Source: Dudresnaya verticillata (lineage: Eukaryota). Taken from it: a stretch of 64,000 nucleotides of DNA. The notes beneath the pieces are model-generated. The model did no database searches and had not been told where the DNA came from. It was given only the letters and a program-made list of their open reading frames with translations. The stretch lies in the NCBI GenBank assembly GCA_977862235.1, contig OZ374563.1, positions 1,240,001 to 1,304,000 on the forward strand, written 5' to 3'. Each line of letters opens with the position of its first letter. Position 1 is the first letter of the stretch. This document shows positions 18,802 to 50,466 of this stretch, piece by piece. The position numbers and the translations under genes are program-made.

Positions 18802-21490
18802 CCGAAACCGGTTCCCCCCTCTCTAGTTTTCGCGTTGAGCGCGGGCGACCGTGGTAACGGTGGTGGTGGCGGGAAGGGTCGTGACCCTGGTCTTGGTGAC
18901 CGCGGCGCTTGCCTTGGAGCGTCGATGGGGTGATTCAGACCCGGATGAAATTGAACTTGCCTATTTCCGCCGGCGCCCGTCCCCATATTTTGACGCGTGC
19001 CTGTCGGTGGCCCAATCGCTTGGCCTGTCGAGGCCGGTCCTTTTTCGAAGTAGGGCAGTCGCCCCACGGTTGCCAACCATGCCTTCTGCTCATGCGAGAG
19101 CTATTGGAACTGCCTCCTTTTTAGAGTCTCAAAAGACTGTTCGTCCGTACGCGCCAGGTGAGGGCAATTTGGCCTTTTATGGCCGACGCCACAACACTCA
19201 AAGCAGATGTCGTTTGGTTGGTCCTCGACCGTCTGCCATCCAGGACGCTGCGTCCTTGTTGGCTGAGCCCAGGCTGGGAGCCTATGGTTGTAGTTTTGGA
19301 TGACCGCATCCACTTCGCCATAATATGGCTGGCCAGAGGGGTACTGCCCGGAGGACCAGCTGTCTGATTGGGTTGCCGTCGATGGTGGGGCTTCCTCATC
19401 TATAGCCGCGACGACGGCATCTTCGTTGTCATCCTCAGAGTCGCTACTCTTTGAGGATTCGGAGTCAGATGCTCCCGACCGCCTCGACTGGCGAATGAGC
19501 AGTGCCCGACCAGGTTTGTGCGTCCGTACCTTCGCGAGGATTTTCCTGTGCAGCGTCGAGGTCGCTTTCCTCGCTCGGCTACCACCCACTAGGGCACGAT
19601 GAGAATCTCCCTGGGCGGTGGCGAGCTCGACATAATCTGCCAAACGGGCGGTACGTGGATCCAGAGAGGTAGTGCTCAGCAGCGGCTTCACCGCGGGGAG
19701 AGACCCCTAATAAAGCGTGTTATTAAGTCTTGCTCTGTGTAGACCCCAGCGACTCGTCGCGCCTGGTTTTGCAACCGTCGAGAGAAGGTGACCTCGTCCT
19801 CATTCGGCTCTTGTGCCATCGTGTCCATATCAGAGGCGATCCTCTCGATGTAGACGTCTTTCGCATACATGCGAAGAAGGTAATTGACGGCCTCGGCCCA
19901 TTCGGTGAATCCACCATTATCATCTCCTGCAGCGTCGAAGTTCGCTTCAAACATGTCTTTGGCATCTTTCTCCAGAAATTCTGGGATGACAAGGATAGCT
20001 GCTCCTTCACTAATGTGAGCTTGGTCCAGCTGTCGTTTCAGCGTTGCGAGAAATCCAATAATGGATACTGGGTCACTTCCGTCGAACCGGCGACTTCTTA
20101 TCACGGTCTTCACCCGTTTTATCTTCTTCGTCGTAGTCTCCGTGACTTCGGGTCCCCGATAGTCATCCAGGTTCAACAACCTATACCTCCTGTATGAAAG
20201 TACGGGTATGAAGGCAGGGCTCCTCGGAACCAATTCCTTCAAACCGGAACGCCGGGGTCCCTTCCAAGAAGACCAGGAGGGTCTGGAGAAAGTTCTTGAC
20301 TGTGGCGCTTCGTCCTCGGACGGACCTGAGGTAGGATATGCTTCCTGATGGGGGTCCCCGCCATGTTGATGGCTAGAATGCCTATCGGGGCGAGACCGAA
20401 GTTGACTCGGTCGGCTGCAATTACACCCCCGGTGATTTGGACACCGGGCCATTTCCTCATCGTCTTGAGATTCGGGGCCTGACCCGAGGTGGGGTAACCT
20501 TCTGCGACGGTCTCGCGTGCCTCGAGGCACTGGCGAACGACGCCGCATTATCTCAGGGACGACTTCCCTCTCGCGGTTGAGTCGCCGCATTTGTGCTGCT
20601 ATCACAGCGACTCGACGCTTCTCCGCATCGAGTTCCTGTTGGAGGAGCTCGATGCGTCTGTCTTGTTCAACACAACGAGTGTTGTCTACGCCCAACTGGG
20701 CGTCTGAAATAGCCAAAGCGGCTTCTTGTCTTGAACGGTCGGCGTCCGTTGTAACCTGGTCTAATTCCTGGTGGACCAAGTCCAATTGGTCCCCCAAGGA
20801 ATCGACCTGGGCTTGTAGGGTCTCGACCCGTTCTTCGTCTACTCCTCGAGAGGAGGTTTGTCGATATCGAGAATCGATCTCTTCTTGGACCTTTGCCAAC
20901 AATTGATCGCCCCGGCGGGCTGTTGAGTCGTCGAAATAACGCATCACCCTCGAGAGGGTTTCGTCCGCTTGACTCTCGAGCAACGCTCGGACGCTCGTGA
21001 CGAGAGCATTTTCGATGCCCAATTCGACCATCTGGCCTATCTCGCGTTCGGAGAAACACCGTTGGTCGGTCGAATTGGCTTTCGTTCTCATTGGCACCCC
21101 TATGTCCGGGGGCAATGATGACGTCGTCACATCTTCTAGGGCCTGTCCGCCCGTCCCGTGCTGGCTAGCCCGACTGATGGGCGGCGGCGGCATACTAGGG
21201 TCAGGACCCTCATTCGCGCCGTAGTTGGCGGCGCTTGCGGAAGCGGTCCTGACCGTGTTTTCTTCATTCGGGACCTGTCCCTTCTCTGGAACAGGTGGTT
21301 CCTCATCTCCTGGCGCGCCCGCCATTCGGGGCGGGCGTTCCACTTCTCCTACTAAAGGATTTTGGGCAAGAGCGGCGACGGCCGCACGGGTTCTCGTCCC
21401 AATTGTCCTCACGGAGGAAAGACTGCCGGAACGGCTTCCACCACGACTGGTCAATCCCGGTCGGGTGGTTTCGCCGTTGGAAGTCGGCAT
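18798..21490 (-). pseudogene. gag: Element B gag with CCHC zinc knuckle
   Basis: Homologous to D gag, knuckle CFECCGVGHKRPNC. One-base deletion near 19700 and premature TAG at 19101-19103. Confidence 0.88.
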
Positions 21491-21960
21491 GTTCAGGTCG
21501 GTCTTTTCGACCTAAACGAAGGATATCGGTCCTGTGGTTGCCTGACGGGAAGTTTTTCCAAGTGGGCAATCTTCTTCAGAACCGTCGTTCTCGGGGTTAC
21601 GGGCGATTCTGGCCACGCGGTCTTTCCGCAATGCGCGCCCGCACAGTCCGTACAAGGACGTATTTTTTTGTACAGGTATTACGATAACCTGTTCAGGTTC
21701 TCCCGGAAGGGGCGTCAATCCGCGACTAGGATGTGCTCGTTGAACGTACTAAACCACCACGGCGGTAGGGGTGCTTGCACTAGATTTGACGTAACTCCAG
21801 CGCTTGATATGAAGCTTAGGGACCGTCGTTACCCGGACGACTAGGGTTTCAACGCCAGGTAGTCGAACCTTGAGATCTTGCAGGGAGAAAACTCGATCCT
21901 TGAAAATTCCAAAGCGATGGACTGACGTTGAGGTAATAAAGGGAGCCGACCCAGAACCGA

Positions 21961-21978
21961 TTCTAGGTCGGGAGACCA
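21961..21978 (-). promoter_or_regulatory. Primer-binding site TGGTCTCCCGACCTAGAA of element B
   Basis: Starts with TGG 1 nt after the 5' LTR end. The identical 18-mer follows the 5' LTRs of C, D and E. Confidence 0.9.
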
Positions 21979-21979
21979 C

Positions 21980-22676
21980 TGTAGTAGTATGGCGCGACGA
22001 GCCAGTAGCCCGCTAAACGGCAAGGACAGCTGTCCCGTGCGCGCACACACCCTAACGAGGGTAGCTCAATGGGGGAGTTGGTAGAGACTTTGAGGGAAAA
22101 GGGAAAAAGGCTAACGTGCCTGAAAGAAAGGGAAAAAGGGGCGGCGCCACCCTAGCACTCGTAGAGTACAAAGCCGTGTGGTACGAGGCTAAAGCTTGTA
22201 AAGCACCTGGAAGGGGGAGTACGGTGAGCCCGTGTAGACCAAAGAAAGGGTACAGACCCGAAACCCACCGTGGGGTTCTATTCAGCCGACCCCTGCTAGT
22301 CAGGGGCGCAATAAATATGGCGAAGGCCGAAAGCGCCTTCGCCGCTATTCCTATTCTAAGCTATTGAAGTTAGCGTTAATAATTACAATGAGGTAGTGAG
22401 CGGTCGTACTCCGCCCTGCGCACGTAAGGTGCTTATGACTCGGGCGCGCTCCTGCGCGTAAGGCCATGGTAAATCAGCCAATCACGGCTAGCCATCTCAT
22501 TGGCGCCGTGCTGTTCCCAGCAATGCCATATGGAGTGGCCAGCAATGCACTGGGCCTTACAGGGCGGCAGTACGGGCGGCGCCTTACAGGCGCATGCCAC
22601 GCGCAATATTACCCGCGCATTACAGGCGCAAAACACGTGTACGTGCTTACAGCCGCTGGCGGCTCATTGTACCACA
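21980..22676 (-). repeat. 5' LTR of element B (697 bp)
   Basis: Direct repeat of 9872-10562, bordered by the PBS and the TSD. Confidence 0.95.
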
Positions 22677-22782
22677 CAGACCCCAAATGTTGAGGAGGCC
22701 CCCTCGATGGCCCTCATCCACGTCCTGACGACGCATAATCGGGTTGTTCCCTACGGATATTCCCCGGGACGAAATCAGGAAG
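22677..22782 (-). mobile_element. Short continuation of copy A gag, truncated
   Basis: Matches the reverse complement of D gag at about 56185-56290. Homology stops abruptly near 22782. Confidence 0.85.
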
Positions 22783-23395
22783 CGTGGAAATACCGGGGGC
22801 CGGAACATGTGGGAGGGTGGCCGGAGATAATAGTCGGTAGTGGAAGAGGGAGCGCCTCGCTCGGAGGAGAAGTGGACCGTTCGAGTCTCATGACAGCACA
22901 CGACAGCGTTATGCGTGTGACCGTTACTGCCAACGCCGCCAGCCACCGCCGACCGTGGCTGCTGAAGTAAATGACACAGCACTGCCAACTAGTGACAGCT
23001 CCAGGGCGCATGCGCTGAGGGAGTGTAGTACGATGATGTGGCAAGTGGGATGTGCCACACGCGCCGCGTTATGCCAGCTGCGGCACCATGACTGTAAGAC
23101 TTACAGAGTTGCGCGCACGCAATTTGCTGCGCGCCGCCGCCGCCGTGCTTCTCCCTCTCCGAGCTCCGAGCACACCCACGCTCCGAGAGTAGTGCCAAGC
23201 CGATTGCGTATCGTATTCCGGCACTCCGCAGGCGGTTGGTAAAGGTCGCTCCATGCGGGAACCAAACGTTTGCAGTCGTAGTGTAGAGGATTATCAGCAG
23301 TAAACACGAGCGCAGAGCTATGCATAGCACCTAGAACAGCGTTAGTTTCGCTCACAGTTGCAAGACATAGGTGTCTGAAGCAGATCTGGCTTTTC

Positions 23396-23435
23396 ATTGG
23401 CTTAGAGGGGCCGTTAACGGCCCCTCTAAGCCAAT
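23396..23435. repeat. Perfect 40-bp palindrome
   Basis: ATTGGCTTAGAGGGGCCGTT|AACGGCCCCTCTAAGCCAAT, about 150 bp upstream of the orphan ORF ATG. Confidence 0.95.
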
Positions 23436-23584
23436 CAAATTCCAGAAAGCGTTTTCTCGTCAGAAGCCCTTCACTCGACATATATGTTTCTTGTTGCGTG
23501 CAGCCGTCCTACCGTCCCCGGGAGTATCACCGCAGCTCATTCAACATACTGCGCTTTCCTTTTTGGTCCTTCGCTCGCCGTGAC

Positions 23585-25291
23585 ATGCCGCCCCCACCCG
23601 CCAACATCCCTCGTACAATGTCTACAGTGTCTGAGAGAGTTCGTGAGTGTGCGGATCGTCTAGTTATCAACCCGAGTCATATCAAAGGGGATGACTGGCA
23701 GTACGTATCTTCTACTCTCAACTCTATTGCGCACATGGCTGCCGTTCTCGAACGTTTTGTGGAAGGAAGTTCGCAGCTGGGAAAGCTTAGGGTAGCAATA
23801 TTTGCTAAACCCATTGCTCGGACGGATGGCACTGTGCCAGCAATAATGTTATGGGGACCTAATACTTCTGTTGTGCCCCACGGTACTGAAGATAACACTC
23901 GAGGTGCGAATACTACGGGCCCAGTTGTTGAAGGCAATTTGCAAGACAGAGATGTCCTACTCCCAAGATCCATCACTGGTCCAAGTACTTCTCGAGACAG
24001 AGGTGTCCTACTCCCAAGACCACTATCGTCACCGATTATTTCTCGAGACATAAATGTCCCACACCCACCTCGAGATGATCAGGAACAAACCGGAGGCTCA
24101 ACAGTAAGGATAACCGAAGAGGCTGCAGCCAAGTGTATGGCACTTCTACTAGATGCAAGTGCTGTGACTAAGCATACTTCATCTAATATTGCAAGGATAA
24201 TAGAGAGCATCAACGGAAAAACCGTGGAGACCGTGTATGGCGCAGTGTTCGCCCTATATAACGAGCGATTGGGACGGGTAGGGGGAGATATATCTGGTAT
24301 GTCTTATCTTTCACTACTCCCAAAAGAATTGCGCGATAAGACTGTTTCTTTTCCGCAGCTAGAGCTGGGAAGATATGGACCGACGAGCACGTACCAGATA
24401 GTTGGAAGACCGAAGTTGGTGAAGATGCGAAACATCCGCAAGGCCAGCAAAGCTACGAAGCTGGAGTCCATCACTCTACTATCTCTTCTAGTAATGATAG
24501 TTGACGATGAGACAATTCGCTCCAACATCGAGGCGGGAGATGGAACAAGTAAGACACGCTATGCCCTACTTCGAGAAGTTGTAGAAGATGTTATGGTTAG
24601 CAAAGCCAAGGATGGGTTTTCTGGAAACTGTACAAATCTAAAGGCTTGTGCAGCAGTATGTGCCGATAAGCCTAAGCCGTTCTGTGATATATACGTTGGG
24701 ACTAGACACGACGAGGAAGAGAAAATGGGAAAGGGGTGCGTGGATCCCTTCACTCCGTATTTGTATGGGAAGAAGGTTCCGGAGGATAGCCTCGTGTTGC
24801 AGTTTACCAGCGTGGAGAAACCTCAGTTACTTTCGCAAACGCAGTACGGCACTGAAGAAGTGGCGAATTTACTGACACTTCCAGTCGTATGGAAGAAGGA
24901 AGCTATTGGGCGTGTAACACTCACCGAATATCCTAATGATATCGGGTCCGCAATTGTTGTGCGAACGGGAGTGGACATCAACAGGGGGCGGAAGAGGAAC
25001 ATGGATATGCGAAATGCTTCTGAACTTTGCGACTTTAAGCCTCCTGCAGGAGGAAACACAGCTGTCCAGCAAAACAGCGGTTCAGGTGGTATTGGGACAG
25101 ATATGTCCCGCAGTCGTGGGAGTGGGATGGAGAAACCAATTTACCCGTTCGCCGAGTGGTACTCTTCTTGCAAGGACAGGAACGTGCTAAAGCGGAAGCA
25201 CTTCGTAGCATTTCCAAAATTTATGCCTGACTTGGTTACTTGTCGGGGTTTCCTCTGGGACGGAGAACATCTACGCTCTATTCATGAATAA
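23585..25291 (+). CDS. Orphan protein (about 568 aa from the first ATG)
   Basis: Long open frame (track 23498-25291) with first ATG at 23585 and an internal 17-aa repeat (DRDVLLPRSITGPSTSR). No domain recognised. Confidence 0.75.
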   Translation: MPPPPANIPRTMSTVSERVRECADRLVINPSHIKGDDWQYVSSTLNSIAHMAAVLERFVEGSSQLGKLRVAIFAKPIARTDGTVPAIMLWGPNTSVVPHGTEDNTRGANTTGPVVEGNLQDRDVLLPRSITGPSTSRDRGVLLPRPLSSPIISRDINVPHPPRDDQEQTGGSTVRITEEAAAKCMALLLDASAVTKHTSSNIARIIESINGKTVETVYGAVFALYNERLGRVGGDISGMSYLSLLPKELRDKTVSFPQLELGRYGPTSTYQIVGRPKLVKMRNIRKASKATKLESITLLSLLVMIVDDETIRSNIEAGDGTSKTRYALLREVVEDVMVSKAKDGFSGNCTNLKACAAVCADKPKPFCDIYVGTRHDEEEKMGKGCVDPFTPYLYGKKVPEDSLVLQFTSVEKPQLLSQTQYGTEEVANLLTLPVVWKKEAIGRVTLTEYPNDIGSAIVVRTGVDINRGRKRNMDMRNASELCDFKPPAGGNTAVQQNSGSGGIGTDMSRSRGSGMEKPIYPFAEWYSSCKDRNVLKRKHFVAFPKFMPDLVTCRGFLWDGEHLRSIHE

Positions 25292-25874
25292 CTGTACTAC
25301 TCCGCGATTTTCATTTGAGAGCGGAATTAAGTCTCTTCAAGTCTGTTGGGTCTTTCTTTAACAGTCTTAAGTGGTTGTGATTTCATTCAACAGGTTGAGA
25401 AATGCCAGACAGATATGTCCAACTACCAGTTAGTCTGTCGTCGACGAAGAAATAGGTTTGCATATTGGAACCAAATCTCTACTATCTACTGTCTTGTCTC
25501 TTTCGACACTTCTTAAAACGTTGGTGGTAGATGCCCTACTGTTGTAGTTGTGAACCCCCGTGGTGTCCAAATTTCAAGCCTAACTTTCCAGGAAGACATT
25601 CAGTAGGAATGCTTTTGATATAATGTATTTATTATCTGAGCTCCTAGATATCTAAACATATCTGAACATATGTTCTAGAACATCTACTCCTGATTTAATA
25701 AGTAGAAGTGTTGAAGAAGACAAGTCATTAGACATTACTAGTTCACTATCCCATGGGATATAAATTCATTTATTAATGTTAGCACAAGAAATCTTATTTT
25801 CCATGTTTCCTCTTCACAGATGATGATGGACTTAGTCACATGATATCAATTCATATATCTCCTGTTTGTTTGTT

Positions 25875-25978
25875 GAGATTGTTGAACACCAATTGCTATT
25901 GAAAAGCCGATTCAGTAGCTACTCATGAGATTGTTGGACACCAATTGCTATTGAAAAGCCGATTTAGTAGCTACCCAT
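25875..25978. repeat. 52-bp tandem duplication
   Basis: GAGATTGTTGrACACCAATTGCTATTGAAAAGCCGATTyAGTAGCTACyCAT at 25875 and 25927. Confidence 0.9.
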
Positions 25979-26024
25979 AATAGCGGTGACCATTAATGAC
26001 TAGTCATTAATGGTCACCGCTATT
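25979..26024. repeat. Perfect 46-bp palindrome
   Basis: AATAGCGGTGACCATTAATGACT|AGTCATTAATGGTCACCGCTATT, extendable to 25974-26029 with one mismatch. Confidence 0.95.
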
Positions 26025-26552
26025 TTGGGACTGAGTCATCAAGATTCTGTCTACATTCATTTCCTGTTAGATTCAATATCGATATCGGGTATGGGAAAGG
26101 TAATGAATGTGAATCTTTACCTCATGCGTTTACTCAGTATTTATTCGTGAACTCATGAGAAAACGTATACAACAGCAGAACCTCTATGACCAACTTGATA
26201 AGAAGCGTTGTGGCAAAGTCTACCCTATGACAATTTGTTATAGTCCACCAAGTCATGACTAAGAAACTAACAGGACGTATATGTCTTACTATCAAGACAG
26301 TATCTGGTCACATGTGATGTCGCATATGTCATATATGATGCATTACATGACATGCGATTAGACGCATCAAGACGTATATGTCCTGTTAGTTTCTGACTTG
26401 GTAATGGTAATAGACTCATAAGAAGTTTCAAGAAGGACAACCCAGTAGATTTTATCTGAACCCAAGTACTAACTACCTATTTTGCTTGCTGTAGCTGCAT
26501 TAATACTATAGACGCAACAGGTGCATCTCAGTCCTAGACAATCAAAGAAAGA

Positions 26553-29500
26553 CTACTCCAAGTCATGTTCCGAGAAGAGGCTGGTCCTTTCCTTGAATTT
26601 CTGGGAGGCCTTTGTTTTGGCTTTGATGTTGGCCACAATTGTGTGGTATGCCAAGAGAGAGATATATTTGACATGTCCAGAGTTTCGTAGTGATGCGCGA
26701 ATTGTTTGAATACGACTGTTTCGCTGCTCGTGGGACACCGTATTGCTTGAGTCTAACTCCGAGTAAATCTTCGGGTTATAGGAGGGAGAGCAGGACTTGT
26801 GATTCCCTATATGAAACTTGTCGCTAACGATTGTGGTTCCCTCCAAAGCCCACCAAAGGGAGTTGACTGCACTCGAAAAAAGACCGCACGAAAAGTCATA
26901 GACAATGAACCGTGGGAAAGAAGCAAAACGTGCTAGTACCATATCCAACACAACCTTCGGTCCTTCGTTTCTGTACAAGACCTTGGCCCCGAAGGTTACT
27001 GGACTCCGGCATGAGCAGGATATCGTCATGGCTCCTGGTGTAAAGCCCTTCGTTTTCTGGGAGTAGTCTTTTGAGCAAGGTCCCAATAACTCCGCTTTGG
27101 GAGAAGTTATTTCGTCTCTGTTGAACGGAAGCGGCCGAACTTGAGGGCGACCAGGGAAGTAATGACCAGTACACAAAGCCTCCTGTAGTGATGAAGGCCA
27201 ACCGTTGGAGGTGTGCGGGTACCTTTCAGCCATCCGTTGCTTTAGGACATGTATGTCCTGAGAGTTCCACCGTTGAGCGTATGTCACAGCTGTACTCTTA
27301 AGCACAGGGGAGTCATAGTACGAGTAGAATTTTGATACGCAGCGCGCTGTGCATATAAAAACAGAACCGAACGCGTTTCTCAGCTTCTTCCCGACCTCTC
27401 CATTTCTATTCAACTCAATGTGTCGAACACTGGCGAGAGCTGACTGGAGAAGACGGCAGCTATCTAGAAAACTTGTTTCACCAGTCTGGGAATTACCCAG
27501 GCCTTGAGGTGTCTTCAGTGCATTGGCCAGATCTTCAGCTTCTTGATAGAGACATATATGTCCCAGTGCCACTAAAGAAGTAATATCTGACCGTCGAACA
27601 AACTGGCAAACAGGACCTTGTACGAGCATTCGATATACGTTCTGTAAATCCTTGCATACGTCCCTGTCCCATTCGGTCAGCACGGTAACAAAGGATGCCC
27701 AAGGCACACCCTGTCTTGCAACACGCCTTTTTGAGGCATGTGTACTTTCCAACTCAGAAATCTTCGTATTCGTCCGGCTGATTACTTCTGAATGCCTTCC
27801 ATATTCTGATATAACACTCTGCGAAAGAGTGGAGAAGAAATATTGAAGAGATTTCAAAAGTCTGTAGAGCAAAGTACTTGTACAAAAAAGGCTTTCCGTC
27901 AGATTACGGAGAGGGAGCACGTAGTTGTGCTCTCCAACATCATTTGAATAGTCATTCCTTCCATTTCCACACATGGCTTCTAGACAGAATTTATCTAGCA
28001 CATCTTCACCAGAAATCAAACGAATGAACGTACATGTATCTGTGAGTGATGTTGTTGTACATGATAGAGAATCTCCCTTTTGACAAGATAGTATCATCTT
28101 GATTGTCTTCTCTCTGCGGAATAACCCTGAGAGCGGGCGATGAAGAGAACCAACTCGCGCCCTTGATACCGGAACTGGGTCACACGGTTCAGCAATATTT
28201 TTTAACCGCACTTGCTTGTTTTTCAAGTATCCAAGTTCTATCCCGTCAATGCAAAGCGCATGAATATTATCTCCAATATGGTCATCTTGAGACATACATG
28301 TCTCACAAGCAAACAAACTCTTCTCTGGTTCCATGGTCATCAGCTTCAGCATCAAGGTACAAAGGTCTTGCAGTGTTCGAGTTGATCTTACCGCAGTGTC
28401 GTTTGCAGAAGGGATAACACTACTCCTCACAATTCCCATAACCTGCGAGTGGTAGTGCCTCAGTCGACTGTTAAGTGTTCCATTGCCACTTACAACTCCA
28501 GTTAGTTCACGCCGTAAGAGGGCATGAGTAGCCCCGCTTGTCATGTTCATTAAGAGTATACAATGATCTCTACCATCGGCATGTACCTTTCTGGCACAAT
28601 GCTTATTGGAGCAGTCAAATTCCTCGACATGCATTCGGCAAGGACCGAGTGTGCACATAATGACACCACCTTTCCACAATTTCCTAGTCTTCGGGTTCTT
28701 GGCCTCCCCGCACGTACAATGCGAAGGGACCAGGATAAGGTAAATCTCCTTTCGCCTTGCAGTATCAGCAACCTCCTGATCCACAAAAATGGACCGGAGA
28801 CAATTGACTGGTGCCAGTGGCAGACGTGAAAGACAGTGGGACATATCTGTCTCAAGGTTTGTCGCTGGATGTGGAGTTATTTCTACTTCCTCCTCCTCTC
28901 CAATTGTACCAACGCATGAGTAAAGCTGACGTGTGTGCATACATCCACCGGAACACACTGTATCACAAAATGCACACACGAAGAAAGAGTTCTTCACGAT
29001 CCGAATGGGAATAAAATGTATCGTTCCGGGGACTGGGAAGTCAACGGACGTCGAAAGCAAGAAGTGTTTCCTTCCGAACATATCCTGGGCGCTTGGGTAC
29101 TCTTCCTCATTCGTTGCCCCTACGGCATGTAACATAGTCTGACATAGGTGCGTTATAGCTTTTCCGCAGTCTCTCACACTGGCACCACATAAACTCGCGA
29201 GATTAGACAGAACCTTCTTAAATCCTTGTACATAAATACACATATCGTCAAGATCTGGCATCCCATTGTGTACACGGAATTGGGTTATGCCCACACATGT
29301 GCAATACACAATCCCGTCTTTTCCTATCCACGTACTCACCACGTGACGGTCCATTGATTTTGCTCCTGTAGCTCCAACTTGAGAGAACGGTAAACGAGTG
29401 CAAATACACAGGGTTGACGTTTTTGACAACACATGAAACCACTTCTTCTCGTGCTTGGCTATTGGGAGCAACCCTTCGAAGTGCTGAGACATACTATGTC

Positions 29501-30017
29501 CCCACGTCGACGGAGACACATTCGCAGCGGGAACTCCTACGACAGCAATCGATGATGAGTTAAATTGGGACACCAAACGTTCCCTCTTCCCAACCCCTTC
29601 AAACAATCCCAAAAGTGTGCGGCATGCAAGGGATTCGAGAAGAGGTGGGACCCGGGCTCTCTTCTCGTCCACGTTTCCAGTGTACTTGCGACGTCCCATT
29701 CCTCTCTTCGAACCTGGCCTGTCCTGGCGCACAACATCCAATGTGAACGTCATATTCGAAGCACCAACCGTCAAGGGTGCATTTTCAGTGGACTGGACCT
29801 GTTCTTGCGACCGTTCCGCGACGCAGGAAACACTTTCTGCCATTTCTCGCAATGTTTGCTCTTTAAACTCATTGCTTTCCGAATGGCTCATGGAATATTG
29901 AACGTCGGGGACACATATGTCTCGCGGGTTACATTCTTCCGCTGCACCTTCAAGGGTAGAGAGGTGGTCCTGTAATTCCGAATTGGTCCAATCCGGTGAA
30001 GGGTCTTGTTGCGACAT
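26553..30017 (-). CDS. KDZ (Kyakuja-Dileera-Zisupton)-type transposase with Cys-rich zinc-binding clusters, 1154 aa
   Basis: C-terminal signature CSK...TPGAMTISCSC...EGP...IVYDFSC...VSDKFHIGNHKSC...NTVSHEQRNS. Upstream LCIDG is a candidate first catalytic Asp. Several Cys clusters (YCTC, CAFCD...CMH, HCTCG...CTLG...C-x4-C). Frame intact. Confidence 0.8.
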   Translation of the reverse strand: MSQQDPSPDWTNSELQDHLSTLEGAAEECNPRDICVPDVQYSMSHSESNEFKEQTLREMAESVSCVAERSQEQVQSTENAPLTVGASNMTFTLDVVRQDRPGSKRGMGRRKYTGNVDEKRARVPPLLESLACRTLLGLFEGVGKRERLVSQFNSSSIAVVGVPAANVSPSTWGHSMSQHFEGLLPIAKHEKKWFHVLSKTSTLCICTRLPFSQVGATGAKSMDRHVVSTWIGKDGIVYCTCVGITQFRVHNGMPDLDDMCIYVQGFKKVLSNLASLCGASVRDCGKAITHLCQTMLHAVGATNEEEYPSAQDMFGRKHFLLSTSVDFPVPGTIHFIPIRIVKNSFFVCAFCDTVCSGGCMHTRQLYSCVGTIGEEEEVEITPHPATNLETDMSHCLSRLPLAPVNCLRSIFVDQEVADTARRKEIYLILVPSHCTCGEAKNPKTRKLWKGGVIMCTLGPCRMHVEEFDCSNKHCARKVHADGRDHCILLMNMTSGATHALLRRELTGVVSGNGTLNSRLRHYHSQVMGIVRSSVIPSANDTAVRSTRTLQDLCTLMLKLMTMEPEKSLFACETCMSQDDHIGDNIHALCIDGIELGYLKNKQVRLKNIAEPCDPVPVSRARVGSLHRPLSGLFRREKTIKMILSCQKGDSLSCTTTSLTDTCTFIRLISGEDVLDKFCLEAMCGNGRNDYSNDVGEHNYVLPLRNLTESLFCTSTLLYRLLKSLQYFFSTLSQSVISEYGRHSEVISRTNTKISELESTHASKRRVARQGVPWASFVTVLTEWDRDVCKDLQNVYRMLVQGPVCQFVRRSDITSLVALGHICLYQEAEDLANALKTPQGLGNSQTGETSFLDSCRLLQSALASVRHIELNRNGEVGKKLRNAFGSVFICTARCVSKFYSYYDSPVLKSTAVTYAQRWNSQDIHVLKQRMAERYPHTSNGWPSSLQEALCTGHYFPGRPQVRPLPFNRDEITSPKAELLGPCSKDYSQKTKGFTPGAMTISCSCRSPVTFGAKVLYRNEGPKVVLDMVLARFASFPRFIVYDFSCGLFSSAVNSLWWALEGTTIVSDKFHIGNHKSCSPSYNPKIYSELDSSNTVSHEQRNSRIQTIRASLRNSGHVKYISLLAYHTIVANIKAKTKASQKFKERTSLFSEHDLE

Positions 30018-30594
30018 AGTGCACGGACTCCAGAAAGGCTCACCGTATACCGTATTGTATACGGTAGCACAGACGATGTGGTAGCCTCGCTATGCTCACC
30101 GGAGTCATTCCAACTTTTCTCAGTGTTCTGTCAAGGATAGCAACGATAGTTTTCAAGGATTGTAAAACGGCTTAGAAATGTTTTCATTGTTGCCGTAACG
30201 TCTGTCTCAGCTGCGTGGTCATATTGCATAATCCGTATATTGATATGCATATCAGTGTCTTTGGCCCGGTTTCTAGGCTATTGTATAAATACACAAAAAT
30301 CTGCAGGACATATAAGTCTCACTCATTGGCTACATGCATCATAGGATGCATCCCATGCATGCATCTCGCGAGTGTGGTACCTGATACGTATCAGAAGCAC
30401 GTGCGAGATGTCCGTCTCCCGCCATTTACTATGGAACCGAAACACTTGCGCACCCCGCGTCCCCGGCAGAGGTATATTTCATTTCGACAGCCAGTACGGG
30501 AGCCATACTCCTTAGCCTTCCCACCGCGATGCTGCAAATTCCCCAACACCCCTTGTGTCCCATGCTTGCCAGGTCGCATATTTTACGGGCAGTC

Positions 30595-32124
30595 ATGGCT
30601 TCCAACGACGCTTCCCTTGACCCCACGCAACAGCGAGCATTTCAATCCTTCAAGAAAGGTTTCTCTCTTGCCCTACTAGGAGGTGCTGGAAGCGGGAAGT
30701 CGTTCTTGGTGGAGAGAATCTTGCGACATGCTCGAAAAGAATACGGTGACGAATTGGTTGCTGCATGCGCGTACACCAACAACGCTGCCTCGAGCATGGA
30801 TGGAAGGACTATATTCTCACTGTTCGGAATTCCTGCTAACTGGCCGCCCACGAAGGAAATATTTTGTCGACACGCTCTTGAAAAGGCTTGGAGGCGGGCT
30901 GAGCTGGCTCGCTTGGAAGTATTGGTAATAGATGAAGTGTTCATCCTCACCTCAGAGATTTTAGAAGGAATCGATGAGGTATTGCGTCGTACGGGCACAG
31001 CGGGCCTGCCGTTCGGCGGTAGGCAGGTGCTTTTGGCTGGTGATCCACTTCAACTTGGACCAATTGAGCAGGATTGTTCTCATCCACATGAGAATAGACC
31101 GGTTCATCTCTCGCGTCCTTGGCACTTAACCTTCGGATGTTTCGGCACCGGAGTTCTTTGTATCCTGAAAGACAATCATCGACAGAATGGCGATCATATC
31201 TTCTTTGACTTGCTGCAGCGCATTCGGGATGGGACGTGCACGGAGCAGGACATACAATGTCTCAACGAGACGGGAGTTGATCCACAAAATGAATCGCCGT
31301 CTCTGATCCCTACGCACACGCAGTTGTTCTTATACAGGAAAGATGTATCTGCCTATAACCAGTCTGTTCTGCAGCGTATCGAGTCGCCACTCCACACGCA
31401 CAAAGCCCAGGACATATATGTCTTGTCAAATGCGGACTGGGTAGTGAAGCGGTTGCGAAGCGCTGCCTTAGATGATGTGCATATGAAAGTCGGTGCCCTG
31501 GTAATTCTGACTCGCAAGGCGGGCCCTTATATGCCTGGAACTGCAGTTGTGTTAACCGAAATCGAAGTGACAGGAAGAGGGGACGTGCAACACTTAAAAT
31601 TCAGGCTTCCGGGAGATGGAGAAGAGGAATACCAGTTGCGCCCATTGCGGTTCTCGGTGCGAAACAGATCCGCACAAGTCGTCGCGATTCGTACCCAATA
31701 TCCGTTCATCCCTGGTTACGCTGTGACAATTCACAAATGCCAGGGACTCACTCTGCAGAATGTATGGGTGGACTTCAGTAACGCGCAATGGAAACCTCCT
31801 GGACTGGTCTACGTCGCACTGTCACGTTGTACTTCATTCAGAGGGCTGAGAGTTACAGGTTTGACAAAAGAACACGTCACCGCACGCCCGGAAGCACTGC
31901 ACTACCTTAGAAATTTCGTCAAGGGTTTTCGAAGTCATTACCCACACCGATTTGTGTCCATCCACGGAGACGACCCCAAAAACAGCGAAGACATTGCAGA
32001 TGATGGCAACGGCGAAAATAAAACTCCTCTGCGAGGCACTATTCGAGTTCTACGATCCTCACGAGGACCGCTCCACGCAACACAGCCACTTGCGGAGCAA
32101 GCCCGAAAGAGGCCACGGATTTGA
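30595..32124 (+). CDS. PIF1-family SF1B 5'-3' DNA helicase
   Basis: Motifs GGAGSGKS, GRTIFSLFG, LVIDEV, PFGGRQVLLAGDPLQLGPI, NHRQ..D..F, RTQYPFIPGYAVTIHKCQGLTL and GLVYVALSR. Start placed at ATG 30595 (track ORF begins 30529). Confidence 0.93.
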   Translation: MASNDASLDPTQQRAFQSFKKGFSLALLGGAGSGKSFLVERILRHARKEYGDELVAACAYTNNAASSMDGRTIFSLFGIPANWPPTKEIFCRHALEKAWRRAELARLEVLVIDEVFILTSEILEGIDEVLRRTGTAGLPFGGRQVLLAGDPLQLGPIEQDCSHPHENRPVHLSRPWHLTFGCFGTGVLCILKDNHRQNGDHIFFDLLQRIRDGTCTEQDIQCLNETGVDPQNESPSLIPTHTQLFLYRKDVSAYNQSVLQRIESPLHTHKAQDIYVLSNADWVVKRLRSAALDDVHMKVGALVILTRKAGPYMPGTAVVLTEIEVTGRGDVQHLKFRLPGDGEEEYQLRPLRFSVRNRSAQVVAIRTQYPFIPGYAVTIHKCQGLTLQNVWVDFSNAQWKPPGLVYVALSRCTSFRGLRVTGLTKEHVTARPEALHYLRNFVKGFRSHYPHRFVSIHGDDPKNSEDIADDGNGENKTPLRGTIRVLRSSRGPLHATQPLAEQARKRPRI

Positions 32125-33002
32125 GAATTATCGAGCTGGTGGGGGAAAACATGAGACAGATAAGTCCTACAAGGAGCTATCTCATTTTTTCAAGTAAGTG
32201 TAGGGGACAGTAGTATAGTATGCAGAGGTAGCGTAAAACAAAATTGGTAACGTCTAGCGAGGACATAACTGACGGCTCTGAAAACTTCACTGGAGAAGGA
32301 TCCTTTTGTGGTACTGGGATTTTCTGTTTCCGTTTTATATCTGAACCTCTTCAACTGCGTCTAAACGGAGCAAGGAATCATCTCGGCTCCGCACGTAGAC
32401 GTATATACTGCGAAATAAATTTCAAGCAACTGCAATACATGTAGTAATTGCTTTGTTAGATAGGGAAATATTTATGTTTACGGTCAACGAAAAATGCTTA
32501 TGTTCCTATATTTATTTTTACGGCCAACAAAGAGATAAACACAATTGAACGCAGAAATATTACAGAAAGAAACAATGGTTTTAGAAGCATGGGCATATAT
32601 TTATTTTTGCGTTCAACGCAGAAATAATTACCTTCAAACAAATGCGTTCGAGGCAGAAATAAATATATGCAATTCGGAAATAAATATATGGCCAAATTAC
32701 AAGCGTAGGCACATATGTATTTTTGTCTTCAGCGTCAGCGTAGAAATAAATATATGCAACCCGGAAATGATATATTTCAAGTTGTTTCTTAGAAACAATT
32801 TATTTATGCGTTCAGTGCATAAATAAATATGTGTCGAATCCTACCAAGCTGCTGCGCACATCTGTACGCATTCACAATTCACAAGTCAAATGGCTTTCTC
32901 ATTTATCACGGGACATATATGTCCTACATTCAAGTCAACTTGGTTGCAAGCAGGTAAATCCATGGATCAATTGACGATCCACGTTGTAACCTATAACGTG
33001 TC

Positions 33003-34982
33003 TCACTGATGACGGTCGGAATCACGGAAGCGACGCGGCTTCTTTCTGGAACGTTTAGGATGGCCTCCACTTCCTGCACTTCCGTCCGTGCCTTCGGGAG
33101 CACTTCCGGACTCGGACGCGCTCGCAGTTTCCGGAGGGGCACTCGTATTAAGCTCCTGCGTGGTACTGTTTGGCGCACCCGCTCCGCTGCTGGCTCCGAG
33201 TGTAGCACCCAATTTCGAGTCGTCTTCGGGAACCGCTGAACCAACACGAGAGGGTACCATCTTACCTGAGACCTTCTCTGTCTCAGAGTTCATGGTAACC
33301 GGTTGGCTCTCGGCGCCTGCAGCTGCAAGGCCAGGGGCAGGTTGACGTGTACGAGCGCTACGCCGCACGACCGGTGCCATAGCAGGGTTGGGCGTAGCTG
33401 AACCCGGAAGAGAGGTCGCGGACAACATATTTCCCCTTTTCTTCTTCCTCGGCGGAGATGATGTTCCCGAGTCAGCGTGCGACGGCGTAGATGCCAAGGT
33501 ACCTGTACCTCTCTTATTCTTCCTCGGCGGTGATGACGTCCCAGAGTCTGCCGGCGGCGTAGATTGCTTTTCCGTCGGGACCTCTTCGTGGGACTTATCT
33601 GCTGCTCCGTGGACGACTGACACAGCGGGCTTATCACCACGAGGCGCAGCACCCTGGGCCAAGACGGGAATGTCATCACGCTTAGAGTCGCATTCGGTGT
33701 CGGGGATGGCAACTTTTTCCTGAGACTTGTATGTCCCATTCTCGGGCTTAGCGCCCTCGTCAGACCCCTCTTCTGTCGGCATTTCCGCATTGGCTGCCGT
33801 ATCCACCTCCGGCATTCTGATGCTGCCGTTGTGGTCCTTTTCTTCGTCAGTGTCGCGGTCTTCCTTGACGACATCCCCACTTGTGGTTTTGTTTTCGTGA
33901 GACTTATGAGTCCTACGAGTGGCCGCGATGTCGGCTTTCCCAGCGGTCTGAGTGCGACTGCTGTCCGAAGCAGTATCAGAGGGATCCACATTATCTTCCT
34001 GGGACACATGTGTCCCAGAAACCTTGGACACATGTGTCCCAGGAACCTTAGACTTCTTCTCAACATTTCCTCCGCTACCTTCTTCCAAAGGCCCTTCGCG
34101 CTTTCCGGGTTCCTTCTTCACCACAATAGGTGGTTTCCATGATAGCGGCACAACTTCGTAGCCTCGAAGGAAAAGTTCCAACCTTAGACGAAGTTTTAGC
34201 ATATCGCTTTGCTCAAACTTCGGGACTGTGCCGCGCTCCAAGAATTCCATCACCCACAGTACGAATACTCCGCAAGAACCTGTGTCCTTCTGACGGGGAT
34301 AGTTAGCGCGAACTATAATTGGGAAGTCCACTGCATCGGTGTTGCAGGTGTCGCTGATGTACTTCTTCAAGTTTCCCATTGCCGCGATATACTCCTTCGC
34401 GACGGAGTTGAAAGAGTCGTACACGATGAAGAACTTGCGGCGAATATCAGCGACGAACAGAATCCAGTGGTTATGTTCTTCAGCATAGTAGGGGACGAAG
34501 AGGACATCAATATCCTCCGGTTTCCAGACGGCGCCCCTTGCCAGCCAGCGGCTCACGCTTGAAAAGTTGTATCCAAACTTCAGCTTCGTCAGCAGGAAAG
34601 GAGAAATGATGTGGATCCTGTTACCAGCACCGTCGGCCTTCATCCGACGCTTGTTCCTCTGGCAGAGCATGTGCCAAAAGCCTTCGATGATGTTGTCGGT
34701 TATCCAGTCAGAGTTTCCATAGGAACCGGGACCCATGGCTCTAACGCGCGAAAAGTCTGTCTCGGCGATGTGAACTGTGCCACACCTGACAGGACCGCGG
34801 TGGGACCTGAGATAATTCTTCTCATTCTCCCTGAAGACCTTCAAAACAGGGTCATCACGGCCATCTCCCTCCAGCTCGAGCTCGTGGGACATATCTGTCC
34901 CGCCCCCCCATAGAACAGAGTTGTACGCACCGTGAGCACTGCGGTTCACGGTGGCCTGGCTGGGGCGGGAGGATTGAGACAT
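33003..34982 (-). CDS. Ulp1/SENP-family (peptidase C48) SUMO protease with a long disordered C-terminus
   Basis: WITDNIIE, VP...HNHWILFV, YDSFN and RQKDTGSCGVFV give an intact His-Asp-Cys triad plus the oxyanion Gln. Start is uncertain: ATG 34982 was preferred because the track's longer N-terminus is translated tandem repeat. Confidence 0.9.
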   Translation of the reverse strand: MSQSSRPSQATVNRSAHGAYNSVLWGGGTDMSHELELEGDGRDDPVLKVFRENEKNYLRSHRGPVRCGTVHIAETDFSRVRAMGPGSYGNSDWITDNIIEGFWHMLCQRNKRRMKADGAGNRIHIISPFLLTKLKFGYNFSSVSRWLARGAVWKPEDIDVLFVPYYAEEHNHWILFVADIRRKFFIVYDSFNSVAKEYIAAMGNLKKYISDTCNTDAVDFPIIVRANYPRQKDTGSCGVFVLWVMEFLERGTVPKFEQSDMLKLRLRLELFLRGYEVVPLSWKPPIVVKKEPGKREGPLEEGSGGNVEKKSKVPGTHVSKVSGTHVSQEDNVDPSDTASDSSRTQTAGKADIAATRRTHKSHENKTTSGDVVKEDRDTDEEKDHNGSIRMPEVDTAANAEMPTEEGSDEGAKPENGTYKSQEKVAIPDTECDSKRDDIPVLAQGAAPRGDKPAVSVVHGAADKSHEEVPTEKQSTPPADSGTSSPPRKNKRGTGTLASTPSHADSGTSSPPRKKKRGNMLSATSLPGSATPNPAMAPVVRRSARTRQPAPGLAAAGAESQPVTMNSETEKVSGKMVPSRVGSAVPEDDSKLGATLGASSGAGAPNSTTQELNTSAPPETASASESGSAPEGTDGSAGSGGHPKRSRKKPRRFRDSDRHQ

Positions 34983-35103
34983 ATCTGTCCCACGCTTCTG
35001 TGTCGCCGACTTCTCCGCTTTTGGTGCGATGTTTTTCACCTCAACTACGGTTATCTTCTCGGTATCGGCGTGAGTAGTATTGGTCGCGGCTTTTGTGTGG
35101 CAT

Positions 35104-35340: not shown

Positions 35341-35829
35341 ACGTGTACACGCGTTCGCGTGTGACACTGAAACTCCCATGTAACTTCTACGTTTATTGTT
35401 TTGTAAGTGTACAGCACCCTCTAGTGTAAGCGGCGGTCGAACGCCCTGCTGTCCCGCGCGCTGTGCGCACGCACTCCGGCGCAGAGCCGTTGAGTGCGTG
35501 ACACGCGCGCGCGCACTCCGGCGTCGAGCCGTTGAGTACGTGTGGACCGTTCCGCCTACGCGCGCCCCCGGGTTACCGTTACCCGTACGCGTCGACGCGT
35601 GTTGGGGCGCGCCGGCGCACCTCCCGGGTTGGTGCCGCCGCAGGCCCTGTAGTATATCTATTAGTCGCCCCTCTGGGCTTCAGTAAACCAAGGGAAGCCA
35701 GTCTACGCCAGGCTTGCCCTTTCTGCTTTGCGTTTCTTTCCCAGTCCTTCGCCCTACGGCTTCCCTCTTTCCCTAGCCGTCTAGGCTTTCCTTTTCCTTT
35801 CCCTATCGTCGGCTTCGTGCCGCCCCACG

Positions 35830-35890
35830 AAACCCCTAAACCCCTAAACCCTAAACCCCTAAACCCCTAAACCCCTAAAACCCCTAAACC
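35830..35890. repeat. Interstitial telomere-like tract (AAACCCCT)n, 7 units plus a partial
   Basis: Five AAACCCCT, one AAACCCT and one AAAACCCCT, flanked by an exact 67-bp direct repeat (35764-35830 and 35889-35955). Confidence 0.9.
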
Positions 35891-36230
35891 TCTTTCCCTA
35901 GCCGTCTAGGCTTTCCTTTTCCTTTCCCTATCGTCGGCTTCGTGCCGCCCCACGACGGGGACGCAGGGATCCGGCCGCTGCCGCCCGCGTACGGTACGCC
36001 CCGTGCACGCTCAGGCTTCGACGCCGTTGATCCGCGACCGTCGACGGCGCGCGCGGCCGACACCACCGCTCTACCACCACAGCTACCACCCTTCGACGGG
36101 TCTGGATGCGACTGACCGACCAGCGCAGCTAGACGTCAGTTCGACCTGACGTCTATGCCACACTGGTCTCCCGACCTAGAAGTCGCAGAAGACCCTATCA
36201 CCTCTCGCGTCGACGCGATCGAGGCCAAGA

Positions 36231-38651
36231 ATGCCGCCGCTACCTACTTCGGCCGCTGCCGGTCCGGCAGACGCCGTGGCAGGTGAAGTTGGCGGTCGAC
36301 GCACTTCCTTGCTGAGTAACGTCGGCGTCTCAGGAGCTCCCCTAGAGGAACCGCGCATCGAGCGCAGGGCGGCTATAGCCAAGGCCCTAGGAGGGACAGC
36401 GGTCTCTGCGACCGACCTCCAGCTACTCTACGAGGAGACGATGGACTCACTTTCGGAAGTGTACGACACCTGCATGGCCTCAGTCGCAGACGCGCGGGCA
36501 CAAGGTCAACGTGACCTGGAGTCGCTTCGACGCGGAACTCTCGCCTCCGTCGAGGAAGGATTAACCCGAACTCAAGGGCTCCTCGACGAGCTACGCCAAC
36601 GCGTTGAGTTGATTGAGCACGCACCGGCGCGGTATGACCGACGGGCGCCTAGCCCGTCGCCGGTGCGGAGCCGTCCTCCGCGATCGCCGTCTCAAGCGGA
36701 TCCGGTTCGCGAACTGGCCAAAGCCCTCCTCGCTGAGCGTCGTGCTCAGCGAAACCCTTTTTATCCACCGGCCTCTCCGCCTAGGAGTGGGCAAGGGTCC
36801 CCTCGCCCTACAAGAGATGACGACCCCTTCTACGGGGTCGACCCCAAGCTACTACAACGCGCCCTCGACGGGTGCGGGGTTGGAGGGGCGTCTAGCCCCT
36901 CACCACACGAAGGTCCCGTGTCGGCCTACTGGCACTGGGGGCCATTGATGCCGGGCGTCGAGCCGCTGAGCACCTTGGTACCCGAATTCGCGAAGGCGAT
37001 CGACTACCGCTCCTATCGTCTAGACGACATAAGCCAGCGGGACAATCAGCAGCAAGTCTGCAATGGCAACACCGCCAAGATTGTCAGCCGGATGAAGGCT
37101 CTCATGCCGCGGCTAGATCGCTACGACGGCAAGGAGTCCATCCGCTTGCTTGGCCTGCTTAGACAGCTACGCCAAGCCTTCAACGGCGTCGGCCTGTCGG
37201 AAGGCGCAGCAGCGCGAGTGGTGTCCTGGTTCCTAGACGGAACGGCATCCCAGGTGTATTCGACTCACCTTTTCTCGGGGTTCCGGGCGACTAGTCGCGG
37301 CACCCCCCCGTGCTGGGCCTCGGTAGTCAATACCCTCGTCGAGAGGTTCGTCACCGACGACGTGATCGCCGACGCGCACGACCGACTGACGACCGCCCGG
37401 CAGCGGGACGCCGAGTCAGAACTCGAGTTCGCCTCTCGTCTAGAGGGCTACGCAGATGACTGTGCCGGCGTCTACTCCGACGAGAACGTGACGCACCAGT
37501 TCCTGCGTGGTCTGCTTCCGACCACCCGACCCGCAGTAGCGGAGAAGGTAAGGCAGATGCCAATGGTCGAGCAGACCAACTTCAGTACCGTTCGTCGGAT
37601 CGCCCACAGTGAGGGCACAACCTACCGCGCCCGCATGGCCAAGGCGTCGACGCCGGCCATCGTTTCGGGGCGCGGTAGGGGAAGCAGTTCGCCAAGCGGC
37701 CGCACGCTGCTTATCGAGGGACCACACACACCCGATAGGGAAGCGGCCTTCGACGGCACGATGTTGGTGGCGCCCGATGACGATGGTTTCGAACCCGTCA
37801 TGGTCGTGCCCGCGCTGTCGACAGCCGGGGCGGCGCAAGTCGAGGAGACCCTCGACATCTCAGGACGCATCGACGCCGTCCTGCCGAGGAGGATCCCTCC
37901 GCTCACACCGGCGCAAGAGGCCATGGCCCGCGCTGTCACCCCTGATCAACAGGGGTGGTACATCTGCTGGTTCTGTCGAGAACTTGGGCACATCATGTAC
38001 TCGTGCCCATTCCTGACTAAGGAACAGCAGTTGTACTGCGCGTATGCGAACTGCAACCATAGACTGGAGACGCAGCCGCACGCGCGCAACAACTTGCAGC
38101 AGCTCATCGACGAGCGCATGCCGGCAGGCGCCAAGGCAAGTTACCCCGCAAGACGCTTCGACGCGCAGCGGGGTGGGGCCCGACGCTTCGACGATAGGGG
38201 TCCCCCGCAGCGCTTCGACGCGCAAAGGTATCGCGGGGAGCCGCGACAGTACCGCGGGGATCGTCGAGATCCGCGCCGCGAATACCGAAGGGCAGACGTC
38301 CCGCGGTTCCTCACTCGCGACAAGCGGGTCGGGTTTGACGACCAAGCCGGTCGCCAACCTCGGGCGTCGACGCCCTCGAGGCCCGACCCGCAGCGCGAAC
38401 TGCTTCGGGCAGTGATGACCGTGCAGGAGCACACCGGGCTAGCAGCCGACGAGTGGCTCCCGCGAGCGCTCGACGCGCAGAGCAAGGGCGAGTCCGCCAG
38501 GGGGCAGGTCGAGCAGCCCCCGCTCCTTTTTGACACGCCGCCGCGATCGACGCGAGGCGCCGGCCCGGCCCCTAGCCAGCCAATGGGATCCGAGGAAGAA
38601 AGCTCGGATTCCGAAAATAATTTTGACCGGATCGAACCGGAAAAAGAGTAA
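36231..38651 (+). CDS. gag: Element C gag, 806 aa
   Basis: Intact ORF after the PBS. DYRSYRL...YDGKESI...GLSEGAA block is shared with the other gags here, knuckle CWFCRELGHIMYSC. Confidence 0.88.
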   Translation: MPPLPTSAAAGPADAVAGEVGGRRTSLLSNVGVSGAPLEEPRIERRAAIAKALGGTAVSATDLQLLYEETMDSLSEVYDTCMASVADARAQGQRDLESLRRGTLASVEEGLTRTQGLLDELRQRVELIEHAPARYDRRAPSPSPVRSRPPRSPSQADPVRELAKALLAERRAQRNPFYPPASPPRSGQGSPRPTRDDDPFYGVDPKLLQRALDGCGVGGASSPSPHEGPVSAYWHWGPLMPGVEPLSTLVPEFAKAIDYRSYRLDDISQRDNQQQVCNGNTAKIVSRMKALMPRLDRYDGKESIRLLGLLRQLRQAFNGVGLSEGAAARVVSWFLDGTASQVYSTHLFSGFRATSRGTPPCWASVVNTLVERFVTDDVIADAHDRLTTARQRDAESELEFASRLEGYADDCAGVYSDENVTHQFLRGLLPTTRPAVAEKVRQMPMVEQTNFSTVRRIAHSEGTTYRARMAKASTPAIVSGRGRGSSSPSGRTLLIEGPHTPDREAAFDGTMLVAPDDDGFEPVMVVPALSTAGAAQVEETLDISGRIDAVLPRRIPPLTPAQEAMARAVTPDQQGWYICWFCRELGHIMYSCPFLTKEQQLYCAYANCNHRLETQPHARNNLQQLIDERMPAGAKASYPARRFDAQRGGARRFDDRGPPQRFDAQRYRGEPRQYRGDRRDPRREYRRADVPRFLTRDKRVGFDDQAGRQPRASTPSRPDPQRELLRAVMTVQEHTGLAADEWLPRALDAQSKGESARGQVEQPPLLFDTPPRSTRGAGPAPSQPMGSEEESSDSENNFDRIEPEKE

Positions 38652-50298: not shown

Positions 50299-50466
50299 GT
50301 GTTCTTCTATTCGTAGGTTACCAAAACGGAGTCAACGAGTGTTTTGCCTTGTCCTGCCTTTACACCAATACGGAGTTGTCACGAAGCTGACCTCCTACCG
50401 AAGCGGAGTCCAACGGAGATTCTTCTACCTTGACGGCCTTCTAGGTCGGGAGACCAAAAAGATGTG

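Follow-up and report, generated by a model that had tools for sequence, protein, structure and literature searches.

Transposons that recognise their own copies through dedicated motifs have been documented in flowering plants, where the motifs lie at the termini or in non-coding repeats; in red algae such self-recognition has only been proposed. Here we analysed a window of 64,000 nucleotides from Dudresnaya verticillata (assembly GCA_977862235.1, contig OZ374563.1, positions 1,240,001 to 1,304,000; coordinates below are those of the window), and in particular what is, on the evidence of its sequence, a ~12-kb four-gene KDZ-type DNA transposon, hereafter the cassette. It encodes an orphan protein, a transposase, a PIF1-like helicase and a Ulp1-family (SUMO-protease) protein, and along it the palindrome GACA-N4-TGTC recurs. 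A preliminary description of this sequence had noticed the repetition and compared it with the VANDAL elements of Arabidopsis.

As far as the accessible parts of the reports cited here and below describe them, VANC motifs are 8-9-base non-palindromes located in non-coding tandem repeats (PMC5735166), and what the cassette shares with the VANDAL/VANC system is a large DNA transposon with accessory genes, a family-specific short motif and a proposed effect on the whole element (PMC5735166, PMC10398659). The logic of the comparison thus holds, whereas the sites themselves differ, those of the cassette being palindromes of 16-18 bp, mostly coding and evenly spaced. VANDAL elements are Mutator-like, while the cassette is KDZ-like and has no Pfam match to Mutator-like elements (MULE), and no VANC homology was detected in general family and fold searches, which did not include a direct comparison with VANC. 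The vanB protein of VANDAL elements is Ulp1-like. The cassette would therefore be similar to VANDAL/VANC in its proposed logic, without being a member of that system.

Spm TnpA and the AtMu1 transposase are element-encoded, sequence-specific activators binding family-specific motifs, which cluster at the termini of elements whose internal DNA is largely methylated, whereas the cassette sites span all four genes (10.64898/2026.08.24.746577). In red algae, the giant DNA transposons of the Plavaka group carry the genes PAG1-3, also reported with Zisupton in Bangiophyceae, with inverted repeats proposed as self-binding sites and a ParB-like PAG3 (10.1101/2025.02.11.637652). Plavaka elements differ from the cassette in their EnSpm-type transposase, their methylase/SET and ParB/oxygenase genes and their tandem arrays adjoining PAG3 (10.1101/2025.02.11.637652); the Plavaka domains were not detected in the cassette, where Pfam searches of the four open reading frames (ORFs) gave PIF1 and Ulp1 only.

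For KDZ elements, target-site duplications of 7 bp (Kyakuja) and 8 bp (Zisupton and Dileera) have been reported, with CA..TG termini and no terminal inverted repeats in Kyakuja and with such repeats in Zisupton (PMC12730594). The cassette resembles this group in the C-terminal motifs of its transposase, in a CxC4-linked profile match and in a possible 7-bp duplication of Kyakuja length. Its candidate termini, GAGG..CCTC, differ however from those of Kyakuja, and it is without a TET/JBP gene and carries PIF1, a stand-alone Ulp1 and the orphan. Dispersed internal palindromes find no mention in the accessible text of the KDZ account (PMC12730594). The nearest sequence-level analogue is the HIP1 palindrome GCGATCGC, which is highly iterated within and between ORFs, apparently through DNA-level selection (PMC5861425), but HIP1 is found genome-wide in cyanobacteria, while the cassette palindrome is limited to one eukaryotic transposon family, with other words in its neighbours. 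Neither family-specific coding palindromes in transposons nor a cassette combining KDZ, PIF1 and Ulp1 are described in the literature covered, which consisted mostly of subscription-free papers; curated Bostrychia elements may bear on the novelty.

A palindrome dispersed along the cassette

Eighteen matches to GACA-N4-TGTC are present in the window, compared to a mean of 1.06 and a maximum of 4 in 100 dinucleotide shuffles. Seventeen of them lie between 23364 and 34989 (starts 23364, 23945, 23996, 24047, 25096, 25408, 27246, 27551, 28291, 28840, 29910, 31411, 32912, 34003, 34027, 34888 and 34978), exactly as listed in the preliminary description, the sole other copy being at 3486. When the spacer was varied from 0 to 12 bases in the interval 23,000-35,600, four bases gave the 17 matches and every other length at most two. 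A purine 5' and a pyrimidine 3' of the core, already part of the consensus first given, flank 17/17 cassette copies and are missing at 3486. Copies with these flanks are absent from the remaining 51,864 bases of the window, where the host TBC and asparaginase-like genes lie, and from all 17 other loci fetched, so the restriction to the element that had been suspected is found at window scale. The palindrome is confined to 12 of the 64 kb, and a HIP1-like genome-wide over-representation is not seen at this scale.

Fourteen of the perfect copies touch ORFs (four in the orphan, five in the transposase, one in PIF1 and four in Ulp1), while three (23364, 25408 and 32912) are intergenic. Synonymous-codon shuffling of the four ORFs gave on average 1.04 copies and at most 5, and 14 were reached in 0/1000 shuffles; with frames bounded by ATG codons, 13 ORF copies compare to 0.96. 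These controls support a constraint that acts at the DNA level, as had been proposed from the occurrence of copies in all four ORFs. The copy said to overlap the likely start of Ulp1 does straddle the first in-frame ATG, at 34982, and the first two in-frame ATGs of this gene each lie inside a motif copy. Because tandem repeats (51-bp x2.4 and 24-bp x2.3) hold five of the 17 copies, all of them coding, and the 34888/34978 pair looks duplicated, about 13 sites can be counted as independent; the sites were built largely one by one and not by tandem duplication.

The consensus symmetrised over the 17 sites is YRRGACA(T/G/C)AT(A/C/G)TGTCYYR, i.e. YRRGACA-BATV-TGTCYYR, of 16-18 bp, with R in 34/34 adjacent positions and Y in 32/34 third positions, neither of which belonged to the search pattern. 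The near-matches of the preliminary description are present as well, with some corrections: six carry one core mismatch (23477, 26274, 26371, 30307, 32155 and 33724, the last having been placed at 33723), while those at 29488 and 31249 are variants with a 5-base spacer and not mismatches. One-mismatch cores with R..Y flanks number seven, compared to a null mean of 2.3 and a maximum of 6 in 40 simulations; near-matches are thus enriched and not depleted, which fits degenerate binding and not a drive that consumes them. At the free positions of the half-sites, 51 symmetric cases were counted, compared to 47.8 +/- 4.3 by chance. Since the half-sites vary independently, a dimeric protein on duplex DNA, as initially suggested, is a better fit than hairpin formation or repair towards symmetry, and the cassette palindrome appears to behave as a dimer site. 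The largest gap among the 22 best sites is 1104 bp (P 0.0027), a distribution more even than random, and the 17 site clusters have a mean spacing of 720 bp with a coefficient of variation of 0.39 (P 0.0019).

The motif has also reshaped the cassette proteins, in which 25 positions hold peptides that the motif could encode, compared to 5.8 in shuffled proteins. In the transposase alone such positions number 10, against 0-3 in five homologues. No indels are found at the ETCMS, GHICL and DIHV sites within conserved transposase blocks, and footprints of insertion or excision were on this ground ruled out as the origin of the sites.

Organisation of the cassette

All four ORFs of the cassette are uninterrupted, and the element is nested among Ty3/gypsy elements. 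The orphan ORF (23498..25291, + strand) is a 597-codon open frame with its first ATG at 23585, and is a candidate reader of the palindrome. Its fold models are weak (predicted local distance difference test, pLDDT, of 33 at full length and 60 for the N-terminal domain). A MADS-like fold of the N-terminus, considered for its helix-strand-strand likeness, is unsupported by Foldseek or PDB-sequence matches, and the best Z of 4.3 given by VIA-align for the N-terminal model was not counted as a match.

The transposase (26553..30017, - strand, 1154 amino acids) has Cys-rich N-terminal and central clusters, the C-terminal motifs YDFSC, DKFH..NHKSC and NTVSHEQRN, and acidic and His/Cys motifs conserved among homologues. 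It has no direct Pfam match, and is considered KDZ-type because of these conserved motifs, a weak match of the homologue P0002 to PF18758 (E 8e-5, below the curated cut-off) and the match of the family alignment A1 to the CxC4-linked fungal-type KDZ protein of locus L010 (99.2% probability, E 1.7e-19). The PIF1-like helicase (30529..32124, + strand, 531 amino acids; PF05970, E 1.3e-22) is 40% identical to that of locus L003, and the Ulp1 protein (33003..34982, - strand; PF02902, E 2.9e-19) has a long low-complexity tail.

A tentative target-site duplication, TAGTGTA (7 bp, + strand), is located at 23279..23285 on the left and 35422..35428 on the right. The corresponding ends, GAGG at left and CCTC at right, were the best of a broad end-pair search and may be due to chance; the same search gave no convincing terminal inverted repeat. 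An alternative left end lies near 22783, where homology to gypsy A stops. Two internal inverted repeats were identified, one with 31-bp arms upstream of the orphan ORF (23385..23446) and one with 28-bp arms between the 3' ends of the orphan and the transposase (25974..26029), and AT-rich imperfect repeats resembling GCAGAAATAAATATAT occupy 32460-32830, with the 3' end of PIF1 on one side and that of Ulp1 on the other. Several different elements repeat the word CTTACAG/CTGTAAG in DNA that is non-coding and resembles promoters (22556-23106, 35104-35338, 50700-52800); it is possibly a shared host signal.

Relatives of the cassette

The nearest named transposases are those of Gracilaria domingensis, with further named relatives in Porphyra umbilicalis and Pyropia yezoensis, which point to a probable red-algal host. 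The G. domingensis proteins are 36-42% identical to the window transposase and form its sister group (support 89/87). Ranked for strict sites that their peptides could encode, they come second to fourth among 94 proteins, some of these sites lying elsewhere than in the window protein. The peptides concerned (ETYMS, GQICL, QDMCVL and ADTDVH) provide a peptide-level lead that the motif may have been inherited within one subclade with turnover of sites. When 27 homologous proteins were scanned for the capacity to encode any palindrome, a test of low power, no clear signal emerged outside the proteins of the window itself.

Loci L001 and L003, which overlap (277 bp, 99.6%), contain homologues of all four genes in a different order, indicating that the gene set travels together. 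The homologue of the orphan was found solely in L001, divided between two ORFs, with 26-27% identity. Spaced palindromes were scanned in eight foreign KDZ loci: seven gave nothing, and L010 showed a local cluster at 32-360. No relatives were found in viral or prokaryote contigs.

Non-coding DNA beyond the Ulp1 gene of L003 (6446-9091) holds a 17-bp repeat, TCAG-N5-GACCTCAG, whose five copies flank an apparent insertion. Judged by arrangement, this repeat, if it belongs to the element, is closer to the VANC/TnpA pattern than the cassette palindromes are. TATC-N4-AATG occurs nine times in L003, partly explained by the non-coding repeat, and is absent from L001.

Palindromes of the neighbouring gypsy elements

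All spaced palindromes were searched per segment of the window, with calibration on 10 simulated sequences each (null minima of log10 P between -3.3 and -4.9). The cassette (log10 P -14.7) was followed by gypsy C (-14.5), gypsy D (-9.0) and gypsy B (AGCC-N6-GGCT, -7.7); gypsy E reached about -4.5 to -4.9, gypsy A was borderline, and the two end segments of the window gave nothing. The palindrome observation is confirmed as real and strong, and had been partly under-called, the palindromes of the neighbouring gypsies having been missed.

Gypsy B (9870..22683, - strand), whose long terminal repeats (LTRs) are 98% identical, is enriched in GCC-N6-GGC / AGCC-N6-GGCT. Between its pol and 3' LTR lies an intact antisense ORF (11151-13346, 731 amino acids). 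Searches of families, Atlas and PDB gave no match for it, nor is it similar to the cassette orphan; it is a candidate reader of the GCC-N6-GGC sites. Gypsy C (35590..44941) encodes a chromodomain integrase and contains 21 of the 24 window copies of the palindrome CGTCGACG; the half-word TCGACG occurs 85 times compared to 19.5 expected. The flanks of CGTCGACG extend symmetrically (52 vs 27), a pattern that suggests dispersed RNA stem-loops, for example packaging or dimerisation signals. Upstream of gypsy C, LTR-like DNA contains a telomere-like CCCCTAAA array of 7.6 copies (35764-35955), bounded on each side by one of two identical 67-bp repeats, and the LTRs of gypsy C match over 163 bp alone (36001-36163, 44896-45058), the rest of one LTR being missing or replaced. 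Gypsy D (45108..51940) is 3'-truncated and holds 26 copies of CCG-N3-CGG compared to 3.5 expected, a word that we take to resemble Zn2Cys6-type sites. Gypsy E (53737..57961, + strand) shows a weaker enrichment of TGG-N7-CCA, with 12 copies where 1.7 would be expected, and these sites are in part hairpin-like.

In coding sequence, the copies again exceed the synonymous-shuffle means (gypsy B GCC-N6-GGC 16 vs 3.67; gypsy C 8 vs 0.90; gypsy D 20 vs 3.61; gypsy E 11 vs 2.63), and each gypsy motif beats all 500 synonymous shuffles in its own element only, TGG-N7-CCA being mildly raised in gypsy B as well (4/500 shuffles). Half-sites are independent in gypsy B and D and over-symmetric in gypsy C and E; the sites of the latter two may be RNA hairpins. 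These element-restricted palindromes indicate that the trait is not special to the KDZ cassette and that a driver at host level is no less relevant than one specific to the cassette; the trait follows the genome or lineage as much as the cassette. A different motif in each neighbouring family is at the same time what would be expected of family-specific readers. At the end of the window (62220-63983), adjoining the host TBC-domain and asparaginase-like genes, a 587-codon open frame of unassigned family has a weak C2H2 zinc-finger match.

Interpretation of the sites

The explanation that we favour, with a probability of roughly 45%, is that the cassette motif is a putative, selected binding site for a dimeric protein made by the element itself, which would oppose silencing. 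On the precedent of the described systems, such a protein is predicted to bind the palindromes; the orphan and the Cys-rich part of the transposase are equally possible candidates, the latter because the AtMu1 transposase activates its own copies. The Ulp1 protein could remove SUMO and PIF1 could aid transposition, while the bound protein would cover the cassette along its entire length and probably shield it from silencing by the host. The recurrence of sites at intervals below 1.1 kb would reflect a short-range effect. More generally, transposons of both classes in this red-algal lineage, the KDZ element as well as several Ty3/gypsy retrotransposons, might each write a private palindromic barcode into their coding sequence, at a cost in amino acids. 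Each barcode would have a reader protein of its own family, which would protect the element throughout from silencing of its body; we put this forward tentatively and consider it rather doubtful.

Several observations weigh against an element-encoded anti-silencing reader. No Pfam family, PDB-sequence, Atlas or fold match was found for the orphan. Of the conservation in homologous cassettes by which the preliminary description proposed to judge the idea, the gene set is kept, but L001-L003, with all four genes including the orphan, have 0 core copies and no dispersed palindrome. A weight-matrix test shrinks the Gracilaria imprint to two sites in P0184 and one each in P0012 and P0013; the two near-maximal sites of P0184 were reached in 0/100 shuffles, and 21 sites were scattered over 121 proteins. 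The gypsies show a like pattern without any of the four cassette genes, gypsy C also without a clear extra ORF, and even spacing is not seen for the sites of gypsy B, C and D; for the cassette itself, the score cut of the spacing test was picked after the sites had been seen. One flank position of the cassette sites is over-symmetric (12/17 vs 7.5, P 0.009 uncorrected). Short hairpins (arm >=6, loop <=8) are 1.2-3.6-fold over Markov expectation in 8/8 window segments. Finally, CpG observed/expected is 0.92 in the cassette and 0.92-1.15 across all segments measured, giving no sign of heavy CG methylation in these elements, and in the absence of CpG depletion a VANC-style CG demethylation is without sequence support.

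Host transcription or chromatin factors might bind the sites instead, each family having co-opted a different host dimeric factor, so that no element-encoded reader would be needed. Five unrelated elements with different motifs in one window, eight foreign KDZ loci without a dispersed palindrome, a four-gene homologue that retains the orphan yet is without the motif and the likeness of CCG-N3-CGG to Zn2Cys6-type sites all speak for this explanation, whereas flanked copies are entirely absent from the other 51.9 kb, host TBC and asparaginase-like genes included, and at 16-18 bp the consensus seems longer than one would expect of a general host factor. If the motif is shared with the Gracilaria transposases, this sharing tracks the phylogeny of the element, a pattern for which a conserved host factor could also account. 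On balance we consider a host factor unlikely, but still a serious contender. It is less probable again that the sites serve transposition without any anti-silencing, the transposase or orphan binding all along the element so that it is compacted, its ends are brought into synapsis or self-insertion is blocked. Such a role is consistent with the lack of a convincing terminal inverted repeat here, as in Kyakuja, which has none (PMC12730594), and with the even coverage of nearly the whole element by sites, but it leaves the duplex-type palindromes of gypsy B and D unexplained and sits poorly with a homologous cassette without internal sites, though that locus does have the five non-coding 17-bp repeat copies.

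A neutral origin appears very improbable, whether through a biased repair or template-switching process that turns near-palindromes into perfect ones, as has been considered for HIP1, or through footprints of a small element that was repeatedly inserted and excised. The general excess of short hairpins, which is 0.94-2.1 in nine other loci and persists in the window after removal of the family motifs, and the extended symmetry in gypsy C would agree with it. Against it, the cassette half-sites are not over-symmetric, near-matches are enriched and not consumed, the conserved transposase sites are free of indels, and one host process should not yield a different word per family. Least probable among the explanations considered is that the sites form small hairpins, either in RNA or in DNA that is single-stranded, with roles such as packaging or the loading of a helicase. 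Local folding of the + strand, done without a control, paired the GACA:UGUC stem in 9/13 sites tested, as any palindrome would, and the element does encode a PIF1 helicase; hairpins fit gypsy C and perhaps gypsy E better. In the cassette, however, the flanks often contain A..C mismatches, covariation is absent at the free positions, the loop follows a sequence consensus, and no Rfam family matched in 22.5-36.5 kb.

Biological significance

New in this window are the different words in the neighbouring gypsy families. Palindromes placed at even intervals inside transposon genes, with another word per neighbouring family and retrotransposons included, would, if the favoured explanation is true, point to a distinct anti-silencing or self-marking strategy, and if the barcode reading holds, the finding would amount to a general self-recognition code embedded in coding sequence and not to a one-family curiosity. 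The motifs offer exact sequences for binding assays and a route to the functions of orphan transposon ORFs. They also open to experiment the question of how transposons are kept in check in red algae, given that the elements studied here show no CpG depletion.

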